Part shown: piece by piece, positions 1,355 to 15,584 of the stretch
Position numbering within the stretch: position 1 is the first letter of the stretch
Layout of the letters: each line of letters opens with the position of its first letter
Source of the DNA: Candidatus Woesearchaeota archaeon
Lineage (GTDB): Archaea > Nanobdellota > Nanobdellia > Pacearchaeales > GW2011-AR1
DNA length: 32,251 bases
Direction of reading: 5' to 3'
Assembly: GCA_964407005.1 (NCBI GenBank)
Contig: CAYOTW010000003.1
Location: 1 to 32,251 of the forward strand
The notes under the pieces: model-generated
What the model was told of the DNA's origin: nothing
Database searches by the model: none
Seen by the model: the letters and a program-made list of their open reading frames with translations, nothing else
Position numbers and translations under genes: made by a program

Positions 1355-1888
1355 ATGACATGTGAAAAATGTGGCTATAAAGATAAAAAAGAGGTTAAGA
1401 TTTTTGAAACATCTTTATGCAGGGTTTGCGCAACATTCTCCCCTAAAAATAATAAAATGTTTGAAAAATATATTTCAGAAAAACTAGACTGGAAAAGTTT
1501 AGAAACTTTTAGAAAATATAATCAATCTCCGGGCGAAAGACAAAAACAAGGAATGAATAACAAAGCTAAAATCGGAAAAATCGTAACAAGAGCCCCTTTT
1601 GGATATGATGTTATCGAGGGCAATTTAGTTCCAAATGAAGATTCAGCAAGACTCCATTCTTTATTTAAAACATTTTTAAATCGCCCGTATTCTCTAAACT
1701 CCTTAGCAAAAAATTTCTCCTTATCTGTAAATGGATTAAAGAAAATTCTAACAAACAGGACATACCTAGGAGAAATAAAATTTGCAGGAAATCTTTACAA
1801 AGGAACTCACAAGCCCCTTGTTTCAGCAGAAATCTTTTATGCCACTCAAAGAAAACTCAACGAAATTCTAAGATCTAAACAATCTTAA
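1355..1888 (+). CDS. Zn-ribbon plus serine-recombinase 'Recombinase' (DNA-binding) domain protein without a resolvase catalytic domain
   Basis: N-terminus is CxxC-x16-CxxC (CEKCGYK...CRVCATF). The segment APFGYDVIEGNLVPNEDSARLHSLFKTFLNRPYSLNSLAKNF...LKKILTNRTYLGEI...HKPLVSAEIFYATQRKL follows the PFGY / NE-EA / IL-N-Y-G / H-I-F-VQ pattern of the domain that follows the catalytic domain in large serine recombinases. No YxRVS-type Ser-nucleophile region is present. Confidence 0.7.
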   Translation: MTCEKCGYKDKKEVKIFETSLCRVCATFSPKNNKMFEKYISEKLDWKSLETFRKYNQSPGERQKQGMNNKAKIGKIVTRAPFGYDVIEGNLVPNEDSARLHSLFKTFLNRPYSLNSLAKNFSLSVNGLKKILTNRTYLGEIKFAGNLYKGTHKPLVSAEIFYATQRKLNEILRSKQS

Positions 1889-3144: not shown

Positions 3145-3171
3145 TTTTTATTCTCTAATTCCTAAGTACAA

Positions 3172-3285
3172 GCCATTTGCTCTTGACTATCCTTTCTTCC
3201 ACTTCAAGAGTGAATTCGGGGAGAGCGAGCCATTTGCTCTTGACTATCCTTTCTTCCACTTCAAGAGTGAATGGGGAGAGAAGGA
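3172..3285 (-). repeat. 57-nt tandem duplication (2 copies: 3172-3228 and 3229-3285) carrying a degenerate second copy of the tRNA-Leu 3' end
   Basis: Plus-strand unit gccatttgctcttgactatcctttcttccacttcaagagtgaa occurs twice exactly. Copy 2 ends in the true tRNA 3' end (tggggagagaagga). Copy 1 ends in tcggggagagcga. Each unit holds a 7-bp hairpin, ctcttga-N17-tcaagag. Confidence 0.9.
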
Positions 3286-3356
3286 TTCGAACCCTCGCAG
3301 GCATTTAAACCAACGCGGCCTTAACGCGTCCCGTTTGACCGCTCCGGCATCTCCCC
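3272..3356 (-). tRNA. tRNA-Leu (class II, long variable arm); anticodon reads AAG in the only 5-bp-stem/7-nt-loop fold
   Basis: Minus strand: GGGGAGA TG CCG GAGCGGTCAAA CGG G ACGCG TTAAGGC CGCGT TGGTTTAAATGCCTGC GAGGG TTCGAAT CCTTC TCTCCCC A (85 nt). It lies between rpoD and rpl18e, where a tRNA-Leu is found in other archaea. Confidence 0.85.
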
Positions 3357-9439: not shown

Positions 9440-10654
9440 CTAACCTCTTAAAGCCTCCACTGGATTTTGCTTAGCTGCTTGTAAAGCCGGACCTACTCCT
9501 GAAACAGCGCCGATTAAAAAACTTCCCGCCAAAGAACCAAAAATCAAAATTAAATCAAAATTAATACTCGCCTCTGAACCTAAAAAAGAATTAATACTTG
9601 CTATCCCTAAAAAAGCAAGACCAAGACCTAAAATAATCCCCATCAAACCTCCAATTAATCCAACCAAACCTGCCTCAACAAAAAATTGAAAAAACACATT
9701 TTCATTTCTCGCCCCAATTGCCTTCATAATTCCAATCTCATTTCTTCTTTCTAAAACAGAAGTAGTCATTGTATTAATAATCCCAATAGCTCCCACTAAA
9801 ATAGAGATAGATGCAATAATAACAATAAAAACCTGAATATACCCTAAAATACTATTAACCGTCTCTAATGTAGCTTCAGGAGTAGAAACCTCAAAATTTT
9901 CCTCTCCCTCTTCAACATCCCTTCGTTGCCTTAACAACCTTTCAATTTTTTCCTTAGTCCTATCAATTAACTCTTTATCTTTTGCCCTAACAGCAATAAT
10001 ATCAACCTCATCTCCATAGCCTGCCAAATCTTCTAAAGCATCATTATTCATAAAAATCACGCCATCAAAAATAAAACTGCCTTTTTTTTCTAAAATCCCT
10101 ACAACTTCAAATTTCTTTCCCTTCACTAAAATTCTATCCCCTACTCTGAGAGCCTTATCAAAACCTGATCTGTCTTCTAATCCATAATTATAACCCACTA
10201 AAACTTCATGATTGTCTCCCTCATCTAAAAGCCTACCTTTTTCAACATTTAGCTCAAAAAATTCATAAAACTTTTTTCTTTCCTCAGGAATACTTGTAGC
10301 ACTTGTGAATGTTAATTTATCATTAAAATCTACATCAACTGTTTCAATATTCCTTGTAAAGACTATATCAACTTCAGATATTTTTGATATTGCATCAGCA
10401 TCATCTTGCGTTAAAGGATCCGAAACACCTGTTCCAGGGGCCCCAAACCCTGTCAAACCACCTGCCTGAACACTAATCAATTCAGTAGAAGAAACTCCAA
10501 ACTGGGCATTTACAGCAGTCTTTAAACCGTCCCCAATAGAAATTAAAGAAATAACAGCCGCAACGCCAATAAAGATTCCAATCAAAGTTAGCCAACTCCT
10601 AATCCCCTTTCTTCTTAAATTCTTTATAGACAAAACAAAATAGTCTTTTATCAT
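9440..10654 (-). CDS. ABC transporter permease, MacB/FtsX family (paralog)
   Basis: Same architecture as 8074-9282 (TMTTSVLERRNEIGIMKAIGA). Confidence 0.9.
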   Translation of the reverse strand: MIKDYFVLSIKNLRRKGIRSWLTLIGIFIGVAAVISLISIGDGLKTAVNAQFGVSSTELISVQAGGLTGFGAPGTGVSDPLTQDDADAISKISEVDIVFTRNIETVDVDFNDKLTFTSATSIPEERKKFYEFFELNVEKGRLLDEGDNHEVLVGYNYGLEDRSGFDKALRVGDRILVKGKKFEVVGILEKKGSFIFDGVIFMNNDALEDLAGYGDEVDIIAVRAKDKELIDRTKEKIERLLRQRRDVEEGEENFEVSTPEATLETVNSILGYIQVFIVIIASISILVGAIGIINTMTTSVLERRNEIGIMKAIGARNENVFFQFFVEAGLVGLIGGLMGIILGLGLAFLGIASINSFLGSEASINFDLILIFGSLAGSFLIGAVSGVGPALQAAKQNPVEALRG

Positions 10655-12233: not shown

Positions 12234-12273
12234 CTTCAAGTTTTTTCTAGAGCACCTTTTTAAAATAATAAAG

Positions 12274-12383
12274 TAGACAGCTCCATGCTTTCCCATCAAA
12301 AGACAGTACCGACATGAACATAGGAAGCTTAACTTCTGTGTTCGGAAAGGGAACAGGTGTGACCAACCTATTATGGCTGTCTA
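12274..12383 (-). rRNA. rrf: 5S rRNA (orphan, not linked to 16S/23S in this window)
   Basis: Minus strand: UAGACAGCCAUAAUAGGUUGGUCACACCUGUUCCCUUUCCGAACACAGAAGUUAAGCUUCCUAUGUUCAUGUCGGUACUGUCUUUUGAUGGGAAAGCAUGGAGCUGUCUA. Terminal helix AGACAGC/GCUGUCU, the CCGAAC..AGAAGUUAAGC loop C/helix III signature and GUACUG are all present. A T-rich tract follows the 3' end. Confidence 0.9.
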
Positions 12384-12446
12384 AAAATATTACAATTCCA
12401 GGCTTTTTAAGCTTTTCTTTTTGTAATTTTGAAATTAAAACGAAAA

Positions 12447-12965: not shown

Positions 12966-13066
12966 GAGGGAGTGCCGGAGCGGTCAAACGGGACGGACTC
13001 AAGATATACGATTAATGAGTAATCCGTTGGCTTATGCCTACAGGGGTTCGAATCCTCTCTCCCTCA
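12966..13066 (+). tRNA. tRNA-Leu(CAA) with an 18-nt intron at the canonical 37/38 site
   Basis: GAGGGAG TG CCG GAGCGGTCAAA CGG G ACGGA CTCAAG[atatacgattaatgagta]A TCCGT TGGCTTATGCCTAC AGGGG TTCGAAT CCTCT CTCCCTC A. CTCA (anticodon loop) pairs with TGAG (intron) between 3-nt bulges, forming a bulge-helix-bulge motif. Confidence 0.88.
13004..13021 (+). other. tRNA intron (canonical position, BHB motif)
   Basis: See the tRNA-Leu(CAA) fold. Mature length is 83 nt after removal. The boundary is ambiguous by 1 nt (a/a). Confidence 0.75.
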
Positions 13067-13157
13067 TTAGCAGGATTCGAATAGTTCGAATCACTTCAAT
13101 CTTGCAAAAGTTGAAGTCCCAGAAATTTTCAATTTCTGAGCTCTCTCCCTCATTAGC
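13067..13157 (+). repeat. tRNA-Leu 3'-end echo unit 1: T-loop look-alikes, the 48-nt two-hairpin module (13093-13140), then an exact copy of the tRNA 3' end plus flank (ctctctccctcattagc, 13141-13157)
   Basis: ttcgaatc|MODULE|ctctctccctca. Deleting the module restores the tRNA sequence 13047-13066 exactly. The 52 nt at 13089-13140 are identical to 14849-14900 and 14930-14981. Confidence 0.9.
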
Positions 13158-13270
13158 CTATCAAAGATAGGCTGGAGACGAATGCTATAAACTCTCTATA
13201 ATTTTATTACAGGGGCGAATAATTCGCTTCGACAACTATCTGTATAAGATGGAGATGCAAATTGTGAGCA

Positions 13271-13433
13271 GAATCCTCTCTCCCTCATTAGCAGGATTCG
13301 AATAGTTCGAATCACTTCAATCTCTATGCAGAACGCAGTGGACAATTTCAAAGGAAAGTTGAGCCACAAGAAAACCTTGGTTTTCTTAGGAGTTGAAGTC
13401 CCAGAAATTTTCAATTTCTGAGCTCTCCCCCTA
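13271..13433 (+). repeat. tRNA-Leu 3'-end echo unit 2: a 53-nt exact copy of 13050-13102, a long variant of the module, and a degenerate tRNA 3' end
   Basis: 13271-13323 equals 13050-13102. The 8-nt tip of hairpin 1 (tgcaaaag) is replaced by 69 nt (13324-13392), which contains a 9-bp hairpin aagaaaacc/ggttttctt. The rest of the module (13393-13422) is identical. It is followed by ctctcccccta. Confidence 0.88.
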
Positions 13434-13476: not shown

Positions 13477-13552
13477 GCCCTTGTAGCTCAGCTTGGATTA
13501 GAGCACTTCCCTCCTAAGGAAGGGGTCGCAGGTTCGAGTCCTGCCGAGGGCG
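13477..13552 (+). tRNA. tRNA-Arg(CCT)
   Basis: GCCCTTG TA GCTC AGCTTGGATTA GAGC A CTTCC CTCCTAA GGAAG GGGTC GCAGG TTCGAGT CCTGC CGAGGGC G. 76 nt with a standard cloverleaf. Confidence 0.9.
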
Positions 13553-13598: not shown

Positions 13599-13618
13599 GA
13601 GTCCTGCCGAGGGCGTAA
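13599..13618 (+). repeat. Exact 20-nt echo of the tRNA-Arg 3' end plus 3 nt of flank (gagtcctgccgagggcgtaa equals 13536-13555)
   Basis: Direct repeat separated from the original by 43 nt (13556-13598). The echo starts inside the T-loop (TTC|GAGT). Confidence 0.9.
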
Positions 13619-13619
13619 C

Positions 13620-14699
13620 CTAAACTTTCAAATGCCTAAAAACCGAATTTAAAGAAAATCTCTTAACACTAACAACATCATCTGCCCCCCCAGAATATAA
13701 TAAAATATCTTTTTTATCTATTACCGCTCCAGAGGGAAAAACAACATTTCCAATAAATCCTTCTTTTTCATATTTCTGATCTGGTTTAATAAATGGCTCA
13801 TTTAATGGCGAACGAGCAAGAATATGTTCAGGATTTTTCAAATCCATTAAAACAGCTCCTGCACTATATTTTATCTTTCCTTTTCTTTTACTAACTCCAT
13901 GATAAAAACTCAGCCATCCTTTCTTAGTTTTCATTGGAGGCGTTCCCCCTCCAATCCGCTCATATTCCCAATTAGATTTCTCTCTAGGCTGCATAATACT
14001 TCTTTCTTTTCCCCAATAAATCAAATCTTTAGAATAAGACACCCAAATCGAAGGTTTAGAAAAAACAAAATTCCCCTCAGGCCGATGCAATGCAACATAT
14101 TTTCCTTTTATTTTATTTGGGAACAAAACAACATCCTTATTTTGTTCTCTAAAAATTAATCCAAGCCTCTTCCATTTTTTTAAATCCTTAGATTCAGCAA
14201 GATAAGTAGAAACCCCTTCATTTAAAGAAACACCCACATAAGTCATATAATATTTATCTCCAATCTTTGTAATTCTTGGATCTTCAACCCCATAATCTCC
14301 TTCTCCTTCAACACCAAAAAAACTAGGAAAATCTGCAATTTCTTCAACAGACTCTCCATCCCTTGACAATTTAATCTTTTTAAAATGAGAAAATGTAGTA
14401 AGTCTAAATAACCCCTGTTTAAGATAAACAATTCTTTTGCCTTTTTTTAAAATTCTCATTTTTCCAATCTTTTCATATTTAACATCATACGCATCCTTGG
14501 ACGCAACAACTGGAAACCTCATTGACTGATTTTTATGATTAATTGGGGCCTCTGCAACTCGCGCAAATAAATTAACCCTTCCATCTTTTTTAACGGCAGC
14601 AGGATTTAAAATTCCCTTGACTTCCCAATCAGGAAAACTAGGTTGGATATCATCTGGATTTAAAAGAAGTTTACCCCTCATGTATTTTAAAACAATCAC
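13620..14699 (-). CDS. GH130/DUF377-family glycosidase or glycoside phosphorylase (beta-propeller)
   Basis: GILNPAAV...VEDPRITKIGDKYYMTYVGV...GGGTPP... is characteristic of COG2152/GH130. Confidence 0.8.
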   Translation of the reverse strand: MIVLKYMRGKLLLNPDDIQPSFPDWEVKGILNPAAVKKDGRVNLFARVAEAPINHKNQSMRFPVVASKDAYDVKYEKIGKMRILKKGKRIVYLKQGLFRLTTFSHFKKIKLSRDGESVEEIADFPSFFGVEGEGDYGVEDPRITKIGDKYYMTYVGVSLNEGVSTYLAESKDLKKWKRLGLIFREQNKDVVLFPNKIKGKYVALHRPEGNFVFSKPSIWVSYSKDLIYWGKERSIMQPREKSNWEYERIGGGTPPMKTKKGWLSFYHGVSKRKGKIKYSAGAVLMDLKNPEHILARSPLNEPFIKPDQKYEKEGFIGNVVFPSGAVIDKKDILLYSGGADDVVSVKRFSLNSVFRHLKV

Positions 14700-14760: not shown

Positions 14761-14831
14761 GCGTGGGTAGTTTAGTGGCAGAATCTTTGGCTTCCAACCA
14801 AATGACCCGGGTTCGAATCCCGGCCCGCGCA
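14761..14831 (+). tRNA. tRNA-Gly(TCC)
   Basis: GCGTGGG TA GTTT AGTGGCA GAAT C TTTGG CTTCCAA CCAAA TGAC CCGGG TTCGAAT CCCGG CCCGCGC A. 71 nt. Confidence 0.9.
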
Positions 14832-14993
14832 TTTCTTGGCCGGGATGTAATCACTTCAATCTTGCAAAAGTTGAAGTCCCAGAAATTTTCAATTTCTGAG
14901 CCGGCCCGCGCATTTCTTGGCCGGGATGTAATCACTTCAATCTTGCAAAAGTTGAAGTCCCAGAAATTTTCAATTTCTGAGCCGGCCCGCGCA
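14820..14993 (+). repeat. 81-nt perfect tandem repeat (2 full copies plus a 12-nt third start). Each unit is the tRNA-Gly 3' end ccggcccgcgca, a T-arm look-alike, and the 48-nt two-hairpin module
   Basis: 14820-14900 equals 14901-14981 exactly, and 14982-14993 repeats ccggcccgcgca. Module copies lie at 14853-14900 and 14934-14981. Confidence 0.93.
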
Positions 14994-15038
14994 TACGCAA
15001 TCGAACAAAGTGAGATGCGTGTTGGATTCTAAGCAGAA

Positions 15039-15117
15039 CCGGGTTCGAATACAACAAATTGCTTTGCAATTTGTGTTGCCAAAATTATGAAAGAATTTTT
15101 AGCACCCGGCCCGCGCA
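15039..15117 (+). repeat. Partial tRNA-Gly T-arm/acceptor copy interrupted by a different 54-nt two-hairpin cassette
   Basis: ccgggttcgaat|acaacaaattgctttgcaatttgtgttgccaaaattatgaaagaatttttagca|cccggcccgcgca. Removing 15051-15104 restores tRNA positions 49-73 exactly. Confidence 0.88.
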
Positions 15118-15167
15118 CACTTTTTCAATTAAAGCTTGACGGCACTAAAAATCTTTGATTTTTTTAG

Positions 15168-15179
15168 CCGGCCCGCGCA
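15168..15179 (+). repeat. Fifth and last exact copy of the tRNA-Gly 3' end (ccggcccgcgca)
   Basis: Preceded by a 50-nt insert (15118-15167) that contains the hairpin aaaaatc-ttt-gattttt and ends in ag. It is followed by tac, as is copy 3. Confidence 0.88.
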
Positions 15180-15205: not shown

Positions 15206-15538
15206 TCAACGACCTCTTCTTAATCTTCTAACATCTCTTCTAAACTTTTCCTTAATATTCTGCGGATTTAAATTTCTAGGCAATCCAACACTTCTTCTAG
15301 GAGAACCATTATTCCAAACAGCCCCCGACCTCCTAATAACCCTTCCTCTAGAATCCCTTGTAACCCCATAACTACTTCCCCTATAACCCGGACAATGATT
15401 AATAACCCGTGTCCTTTGAGGAAATTGATAATATCTTGGATTAGAATAGCCTTGATAATAATTAGAAGGCAAACAACCAGCCATAGAAGCCCCTAAGAAA
15501 ATAGAACCAATAAAACCAATTAACCCAGTTTTATTCAT
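15206..15538 (-). CDS. Small Arg-rich putative lipoprotein
   Basis: Preferred start is Met15 (ATG 15538-15536), with a TTTATATA box about 25 nt upstream. Signal plus lipobox-like MNKTGLIGFIGSIFLGASMAGC. Confidence 0.5.
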   Translation of the reverse strand: MNKTGLIGFIGSIFLGASMAGCLPSNYYQGYSNPRYYQFPQRTRVINHCPGYRGSSYGVTRDSRGRVIRRSGAVWNNGSPRRSVGLPRNLNPQNIKEKFRRDVRRLRRGR

Positions 15539-15559
15539 ATAAAAAATAAGTAAAACACC

Positions 15560-15567
15560 TATATAAA
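15560..15567 (-). promoter_or_regulatory. TATA box (TTTATATA on the minus strand) for the lipoprotein gene
   Basis: About 25 nt from the ATG at 15538. Confidence 0.4.
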
Positions 15568-15584
15568 CTTTACTTTGCAAACCC

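Follow-up and report, generated by a model that had tools for sequence, protein, structure and literature searches.

The tRNA-Gly(TCC) gene of contig CAYOTW010000003.1 from a Candidatus Woesearchaeota archaeon (the window, a complete NCBI contig of 32,251 nt) is followed by an array, up to position 15179, in which the tRNA's 3' end recurs four times, separated by short hairpin-rich inserts. Two of these inserts contain the same 48-nt structured module, hereafter M, which is also found behind another tRNA gene of the window and behind tRNA genes of related genomes. The feature is real, highly non-random and part of a lineage-wide phenomenon which, as far as the literature shows, is undescribed. 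Our preferred reading, held tentatively and somewhat short of an even chance, is that M and its relatives form a lineage-specific family of miniature non-coding elements homing to T-arm-like hairpins and multiplied by recombination between the tRNA-end copies.

The tRNA-Gly(TCC) gene lies on the plus strand at 14761-14831 (ARAGORN; Rfam tRNA model, 68 bits) and has no encoded CCA. Its last 12 nt (14820-14831), CCGGCCCGCGCA, correspond to tRNA positions 62-73, in which the acceptor 3' strand is preceded by four bases of the T-stem 3' strand and followed by the discriminator. A search of the window recovered exact matches at 14820, 14901, 14982, 15106 and 15168, all on the plus strand, as an earlier note made from the sequence alone had claimed, while 0.04 would be expected by chance and five matches were reached by 0 of 100 shuffles; no sixth match is present in the window, even allowing 2 mismatches. 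Tandem Repeats Finder (TRF) reports 14820-14994 with a period of 81, 2.2 copies and 100 % identity, so the perfect 81-nt tandem described for units 1 and 2 holds in the assembled sequence. The inserts between the copies measure 69, 69, 112 and 50 nt; the 111 nt that had been given for the third is right only if copy 4 is counted from 15105, where it can be read as the 13-nt CCCGGCCCGCGCA. TAC follows copies 3 and 5 and TTTCTT follows the tRNA as had been described, and TTTCTT is also found after copy 2. Furthermore, the folds agree with the proposed ability of GGCCGG(G) to pair with either the upstream or the downstream CCGGCC, and the topology had been read correctly, with the intact tRNA proximal and the 3' fragments distal. 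The array is indeed gene-less, the sole open reading frame (ORF) of at least 80 aa over it being a mechanical one of 89 aa (14763-15032) that starts within the tRNA.

The units are all on the plus strand and the first one reads TTTCTT-GG-CCGGG-ATGTAAT-C / insert / CCGG-CCCGCGC-A. According to sequence and folds, its left part (14832-14852) comprises the spacer TTTCTT, the stretch GGCCGGG (14838-14844), complementary to CCCGGCC and with the T-stem 5' strand CCGGG directly copied inside it, and a degenerate T-loop with C61, ATGTAATC (14845-14852). Module M copy 1 follows at 14853-14900 with hairpin H1 (7 bp, a bulged U, 3 bp and a GCAA loop), CC, hairpin H2 (8 bp) and AG; it scores 72.4 bits (E 3.7e-16) against R1, the covariance model (CM) of M, and its hairpins are backed by covariation. 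After copy 2 of positions 62-73 (14901-14912), the left part of unit 2 (14913-14933) is identical to 14832-14852 (TRF, 100 %), and module M copy 2 (14934-14981; CM R1), identical to copy 1, leads to copy 3 (14982-14993). The body of unit 3 (14994-15104; sequence reading and fold) has near its start an inverted T-loop-like ATCGAAC (15000-15006) and then a pseudo-tRNA-Gly devoid of a D-arm (15017-15050), made of GCGTG (15017-15021), an anticodon-arm-like part (15022-15038) and CCGGGTTCGAAT (15039-15050). The T-loop of this pseudo-tRNA is followed by a diverged two-hairpin insert (hairpin at 15051-15078; CC-hairpin-TAGCA at 15079-15104) and then by positions 61-73, which are the 13 nt of copy 4 (15105-15117). 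In unit 4 (body 15118-15167) a terminal hairpin, CTAAAAATC-TTT-GATTTTTTTAG (15145-15167), abuts the fifth and last copy (15168-15179), and R1 weakly matches the H2 part at 15147-15163. Units 3 and 4 carry diverged inserts with an M-like layout, and a hairpin-(T)AG(CA) stands immediately before the copy at the end of all four units.

A degenerate pattern of M retrieved 77 metagenome loci and 64 distinct copies with an intact H2; the module is present in about 70 metagenome contigs. GTTGAA, GTCCCAGA and TCTGAG were set by this pattern, hence their invariance is no evidence, while the pattern left ACTTCA, the covarying stems and the left flank unconstrained. From 51 distinct copies the fold is an H1 of 7 bp, a bulge, 3 bp and a loop, a CC spacer, an H2 of 8 bp and an AG tail, with 97.7 % of cells paired and 69 double-sided changes, a score reached by 0 of 500 shuffles; H1 and H2, already proposed in the earlier note, are thus conserved and supported by covariation. 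G.U pairs outnumber A.C in the stems (20 against 5) and the H1 loop is of the GNRA type in 27 of the 51 copies; the fold is therefore selected on the sense strand as a single strand, either RNA or single-stranded DNA. R1 gives 72 bits for sense copies and 19 for the antisense strand. Folding energy was rejected as a means of choosing the strand since both strands fold well (z -4.0 and -5.3). The R1 scan of the window returned nothing beyond the array copies, and among the SecF-selected GTDB loci it gave one strong match (L081; L numbers denote loci) and five weak ones, while a 26-mer of the module had no match in GTDB species genomes or IMG/VR. Rfam 15 showed no match in the window arrays even at E <= 5, and at gathering thresholds 0 module copies were matched in 20 module-bearing loci. 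M is usually trailed after ~12 nt by a T-rich stretch.

Several known identities were considered by inspection and rejected. A type II hammerhead fits in A15.1/U16.1 and GUC but its CUGANGA strand is absent; the likeness to the hairpin ribozyme is in sequence only; a C/D box sRNA would lack its C box; and the central helix of a bulge-helix-bulge intron is unformed. The 4 nt before the 5' junction of the insert do not pair with the 4 nt before its 3' junction, likewise by inspection, and only the 3' side of the insert (UCUG-AG/C-helix) resembles half of a bulge-helix-bulge motif. The ends of M (ACTTCAA... / ...TCTGAG) are not terminal inverted repeats.

The same 48 nt are found in the Leu(CAA) and Gly arrays of the window, with flanks specific to each tRNA. 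When M copies lying at most 260 nt behind a tRNA on the same strand are considered, the own 3' end of that tRNA follows 15 of 19 distinct copies. At least 10 isoacceptors show M and then their own 3' end, and M-bearing tRNAs include Leu(CAA), Leu(TAG), Gly(TCC), Gly(GCC), Arg(CCT), Asp, Thr and two Ser. Moreover, the search pattern did not include the 8 nt on the left of M, yet these are conserved as the T-loop-like TTnRAW(C/A)A. M is in sense orientation in nearly all trailers and antisense in every tRNA intron seen, namely three long introns of tRNA-Lys (L092), tRNA-Tyr (L127/L147) and a Gln-like tRNA (L155/L099/L118). Antisense copies in trailers (L098, L106, L121) are located just before the T-loop of tRNA-end copies and meet the same TTCGAA motif, read on the other strand. 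M is also found away from tRNAs, and there some copies sit within terminator-like hairpins with covarying strands (CCATCGCC/GGCGATGG in L153, CCACTGCC/GGCAGTGG in L161). Comparison of the filled sites L091 and L160 with the empty site L103, where GAGGAGATTCAAAAA/GAACCAGTGGGTTC is uninterrupted, reveals a precise insertion with no duplication. A simple target-site duplication by M was accordingly rejected, given that this pair shows none and that the 5' part of the pseudo T-arm stands between the tRNA and M. Direct repeats of 12-15 nt do flank a unit at two non-tRNA sites (L094, L131), and flanking direct repeats, where present, are 9 to 25 nt long. Nested inserts were found in the H1 loop of M in the window (13324-13390) and in L143.

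Beside these copies of M, a second repeated element of ~55 nt (..ATTTCAyyGGAGGCATTTAGAAAT..GAGGARTTCAAAA + hairpin + T-run) was observed in L164, L093 (around the module), L103 and L091; it occurs in tandem and inside tRNA introns, and M is inserted in the 3' strand of its stem. The long inserts or introns of the Lys, Tyr and Gln-like tRNAs are about 150-270 nt (L092 4767-5104, Lys; L127 7668-7860, minus strand, Tyr; L155 5976-6186, Gln-like) and are packed with hairpin elements, antisense M included; ARAGORN and Rfam fail there. In L099, a groundwater Pacearchaeota-like contig, an Rfam match to the RT-16 RNA, a motif associated with reverse-transcriptase genes, is located at 9866-10014, 3.4 kb from an M copy.

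The spread of the arrays was examined in 83 related Pacearchaeota loci, fetched only via SecF similarity, plus the window, which together hold 185 tRNAs, and an exact copy of at least 9 nt of the tRNA's own 3' end within 600 nt downstream was scored. Such a copy follows 30 of the 185 tRNAs, while the upstream and reverse-complement controls each gave 0/185. All four tRNA genes of the window are followed by copies of their own 3' end. In the related loci the distance from tRNA to copy is mostly 80-125 nt. Three copies are more than 1 kb away (L106, L056, L125), none of them shown to bound an integrated element; the one in L106 was rejected as the mark of a full-length island as it is part of another tRNA-Leu gene, whose 3' end is identical and which lies beyond a ribosomal-protein operon. 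Tandem arrays are also present in the independent assemblies L053, L111, L121 and L098.

Many of these examples share one unit plan, which is composed of the tRNA end, 3-15 spacer bases, often an inverted copy of the own T-loop/T-stem, a direct copy of the T-stem 5' strand and T-loop, a hairpin-rich insert, the remaining T-stem 3' strand, the acceptor 3' strand and the discriminator. In other words, a unit is a pseudo T-arm with the 3' acceptor strand (about positions 49-73) split by a structured insert, near 61/62 in the Gly array and, across units, before 54 and from 60/61 to 61/62. The inverted copy follows tRNA-specific variants (GGGAATCGAAC in L042; GATTTGAACC where the T-loop is TTCAAAT), and the 3'-end copy is between 9 and 20 nt long. 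Even in the shortest units (46-63 nt) a small hairpin is present. Inserts other than M recur as well. Indeed, a 'type-B' unit (GGCGAAcAATTCGCTTCGA ... GAGATGCAAATTGTGAGCA) stands behind tRNA-Leu(CAA) in the window, L106, L011, L021 and L007, and in L008 behind both tRNA-Arg and tRNA-Gly, in each case preceded by the T-stem 5' part of the local tRNA and followed by the 3' end of that tRNA. An 'Arg-type' unit is common to L001, L006 and L037 at the same tRNA, and its 3' copy matches the acceptor stem of each genome.

The gene order tRNA-Leu(CAA) - tRNA-Arg(CCT) - tRNA-Gly(TCC) - secF is conserved, the SecF nearest to that of the window being 67 % identical. The empty site that had been proposed as a check was found, since the gap between tRNA-Gly(TCC) and secF is at most 66 nt in 37 of 59 relatives (L001, L004 and L006 were viewed) compared to 781 nt in the window, which indicates that the Gly array is an addition in the lineage of the window. 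The related proposal that the last copy with TAC is the ancestral tRNA trailer went unconfirmed, given that between this copy and secF there are a further 433 nt, which include a small ORF on the opposite strand.

Together, the patchy spread, the occurrence of identical copies at several loci of one genome, the nesting, the use of either orientation, the presence of filled as well as empty sites, the conserved flank motif and the strand-specific fold fit a family of miniature elements, whose mobility we infer. M and its relatives would be non-autonomous miniature elements without terminal inverted repeats or target duplication, and would insert at the junction of the loop and the 3' stem of hairpins, in an orientation fixed relative to a T-loop-like TTnRAA motif. 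Insertions would survive only in non-essential T-arm copies, trailers and introns. Whole units could then be multiplied, lost or exchanged through recombination or slippage between identical tRNA-end copies, which would yield the perfect 81-nt tandem pair. A number of observations weigh against this reading. No transposase, reverse transcriptase or recombinase is linked to the units, and among the units seen there is no bare duplication of the tRNA 3' part without an insert, so that duplication and insertion may be one event, which a two-step model leaves unexplained. A simple mobile element does not predict a pseudo T-stem 5' strand and inverted T-arm pieces that follow the local tRNA, as is the case here, and a general closing helix around M, while frequent, was rejected as it is not significantly above the mismatched-flank control (6.6 against 4.5 enclosing pairs). 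Furthermore, a functional RNA would likewise be compatible with the strong sequence conservation, with the GNRA loops and with the sense orientation seen in most trailers, and the persistence of Arg-type units with copies tracking the local acceptor stem could reflect selection for function.

A functional RNA co-transcribed with the tRNA is therefore a serious rival, even if we consider it doubtful. The units would be small RNAs or processing cassettes in which M is a protein-binding or catalytic RNA domain, and the tRNA-like 3' tail and pseudo T-arm would let tRNA-processing enzymes define the ends or would sequester the extra 3' strand. Covariation, the sense-strand G.U bias, the GNRA loops, conserved junction nucleotides and the usual T-rich stretch ~12 nt after M speak for it, as does the strand preference of M, sense in trailers and antisense in introns; the Arg-type units, at the same tRNA in three distant genomes, do so too. 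On the other hand the units are patchy, as they follow about 16 % of tRNAs, these tRNAs differ between genomes and most relatives are empty; nested and degenerate copies, the antisense copies in the trailers of L098, L106 and L121 and the lack of an Rfam family match likewise speak against it. An unlikely but related possibility is a new mobile system acting at the level of RNA or of single strands, in which M would be a small RNA domain that is catalytic or recruits an enzyme and so gets itself copied into T-arm-like hairpins. In that case the tRNA 3' end would act as primer or landing site. Every event would restore the tRNA and displace the older units outward, so that the order of the units would record their history as in CRISPR arrays, but with neither Cas1 nor an integrase involved. 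In a weaker version, M would be a new RNA that cleaves itself or takes part in processing and thereby sets the 3' ends of tRNA transcripts.

The model put forward in the earlier note, a classical scar left by serial integration of tyrosine-integrase elements at the tRNA 3' end (attL/attR) whose interiors were later deleted, accounts for the proximal intact tRNA, the distal fragments and the empty relatives. Moreover, integration of tRNA-targeting elements is a known origin of tRNA fragments in archaea (PMC9897764, PMC4383910). We nevertheless judge it quite improbable here. A Pfam scan found a tyrosine-recombinase domain in 0 of 30 window ORFs, and the same ORFs contain no Cas1, PolB, transposase or reverse transcriptase; no Y1 (HUH) transposase was found either, the scan having covered the 32-kb contig only. 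The 'tyrosine recombinase' that had been attributed to the window was not found among them, the only 'Recombinase' match being ORF 1355-1888 (plus strand, 177 aa), which has an N-terminal Zn-ribbon and the non-catalytic 'Recombinase' DNA-binding domain of large serine recombinases but no catalytic domain. Its family, of constant length (~177 aa) and ~65 % identity, is found in hundreds of Pacearchaeota contigs, and this conservation points to a host gene rather than an island integrase. The unit sizes are tightly clustered at 80-125 nt and not scattered, and no copy kilobases away, of which the one in L106 was inspected, was found to be separated from its tRNA by genes of an element. The insert interrupts the pseudo T-arm instead of being flanked by att sites, and the same insert behind at least 10 tRNA types, each with its own positions 62-73, is not what one site-specific integrase would produce. 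In viral contigs, scans with the module 26-mer, the degenerate module, H1 only and type-B gave nothing or chance coding matches with no hairpin and no tRNA context; hence M or type-B in a tRNA context was found in no viral contig. Taken together, the tight sizes, the lack of genes and of a free form, one insert at many tRNAs and its position inside the pseudo T-arm leave the integrase scar unsupported. By-products of replication or repair, in which template switching or slippage at a hairpin-prone and heavily transcribed tRNA 3' end produces direct-inverted-direct partial duplications and the hairpins are passengers, also have only a slim chance. They would explain the perfect tandem repeats and why the local T-arm is present in the units in inverted as well as direct copy, but they leave unexplained a foreign 48-nt module conserved over dozens of genomes with compensatory changes and the presence of M at non-tRNA sites. 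Finally, an assembly artefact in a short-read metagenome bin is hardly credible as the source of the repeat structure; the contig is a fragment from a metagenome assembly and a perfect 81-nt tandem is hard to size with short reads, yet unique sequence lies between the copies in units 3 and 4 and equivalent arrays are found in many independent assemblies and sample types.

Parts of the pattern can be recognised in known systems. Integration of tRNA-targeting elements (Islander-type islands, archaeal proviruses and plasmids), in which attL is the restored tRNA and attR the displaced 3' fragment, gives the same direct tRNA-3' repeat around inserted DNA, the same proximal functional tRNA and an empty site in relatives, and serial events would put the oldest unit distal. 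The inserts here are nevertheless 50-112 nt instead of kilobases and carry no integrase or other gene, an identical module is seen at many tRNA types, the pseudo T-arm is split and the identity block is only 9-20 nt. MITEs (miniature inverted-repeat transposable elements), repetitive extragenic palindromic elements and bacterial interspersed mosaic elements (REP/BIME), Rickettsia palindromic elements and the palindrome-associated transposable elements (PATEs) derived from IS200/IS605 are similarly small, non-coding, hairpin-forming, multi-copy, intergenic, nested and patchy. As in IS200/IS605 derivatives, there are no terminal inverted repeats and no target duplication, one flank has a conserved motif, and the orientation relative to the target is specific. 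In contrast to the PATEs, the hairpins of M differ from each other and abut its borders, and H1 has a GNRA loop. Unlike MITEs, which derive from DDE transposons, M has neither terminal inverted repeats nor a target-site duplication of fixed length. Miniature repeats in general differ in that the target here is a T-loop-like motif at the junction of hairpin loop and 3' stem, that the units come together with a copied tRNA 3' end and that no partner transposase is known for M.

Terminal inverted repeats, duplications of 14-15 bp and the genes cas1 and polB are features of casposons (PMC5137440). Target-duplicating integration of the casposon/CRISPR type (Cas1) at a tRNA 3' end would build similar leader-proximal repeat-insert-repeat arrays, but the copies here are 9-20 nt, inverted terminal repeats are missing, no cas1 was found in the window and M inserts without duplication. 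Archaeal non-canonical tRNA introns provide short structured inserts at nearly the same positions of the T-loop region, with related inserts in different tRNAs, and M is itself found inside long anticodon-side introns. Intron transposition has been proposed in Thermoproteales. The inserts described here differ from such introns as they occupy non-functional downstream copies while the working tRNA is intact, have by inspection no bulge-helix-bulge junctions, and are antisense where M lies within real introns. In the DPANN archaeon ARMAN-2, T-loop introns are located at 53/54 and 59/60 (PMC3239211), and the closeness of the present insert positions to these sites suggests a link to how archaeal tRNA genes gain inserts. 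A further parallel comes from fungi, as the Neurospora mitochondrial retroplasmid integrates at tRNA genes through hybrid cDNAs. There too an element at a tRNA 3' end is flanked by duplicated tRNA without a site-specific integrase, the tRNA part being templated locally; that system requires a reverse transcriptase and a kilobase-sized plasmid, whereas no reverse transcriptase is linked to the units here.

If the preferred reading of M as a miniature element is true, Pacearchaeota, which are ultra-small DPANN archaea with reduced genomes, would carry an undescribed family of 50-120-nt structured elements that colonise T-arm-like hairpins, tRNA trailers and tRNA introns, and tRNA 3' ends would be duplicated without any integrase. 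Arrays of tRNA fragments would then give false positives here when used as island markers. The observations bear on the origin of inserts and fragments in the T-loop region of archaeal tRNAs and on the content of the unusually long tRNA introns of Pacearchaeota. Moreover, the conserved 48 nt of M make up a well-defined new motif, of RNA or of single-strand DNA, that is directly testable for cleavage, protein binding and transposition.

The window holds further arrays of the same kind. The tRNA-Leu(CAA) gene (12966-13066, plus strand; Rfam, with orthologues in L004 and L006) heads a second one of 366 nt (13067-13432, plus strand), with 3'-end copies at 13141-13152 and 13271-13287 and a degenerate one at 13423-13432. 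This array contains the module M already mentioned (13093-13140), a type-B unit (13153-13270) and a second M whose H1 loop holds the nested 67-nt insert, so that the H1 5' strand (13314-13323), the insert (13324-13390) and the rest (13391-13422) follow each other, all on the plus strand. The intron of this gene measures 18 nt and is at the canonical position; by default ARAGORN overlooks the gene, which it miscalls tRNA-Met in intron mode, while Rfam detects it. Behind tRNA-Arg(CCT) (13477-13552, plus strand), a 46-nt insert is followed by a 20-nt copy of its 3' end (13599-13618). On the minus strand, tRNA-Leu(AAG) (3272-3356) is followed by two 57-nt units (3171-3271), between which lies an 8-nt copy of its 3' end, CTCTCCCC (3218-3225).

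As for the neighbouring genes, the window, which comes from a member of the Pacearchaeota (DPANN), encodes AglB and SecDF; together with the intron-containing tRNA, these are consistent with an archaeal source. The small ORF between the last Gly copy and secF (15206-15580, minus strand; about 110 aa, counted from MNKTGL...) has an N-terminus resembling a signal peptide or lipobox and a tail rich in Arg, Gly and Tyr, shows no Pfam or NCBIfam match, and has no counterpart in the relatives, which lack a gene between tRNA-Gly and secF. A gene of the GH130 family (mannoside phosphorylase-like) is located at 13620-14699 on the minus strand between tRNA-Arg and tRNA-Gly; as these two tRNAs are only 40-130 nt apart in relatives, it is a lineage-specific insertion in the tRNA cluster. 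Just upstream of this cluster, a lone 5S rRNA gene is found at 12272-12384 on the minus strand.

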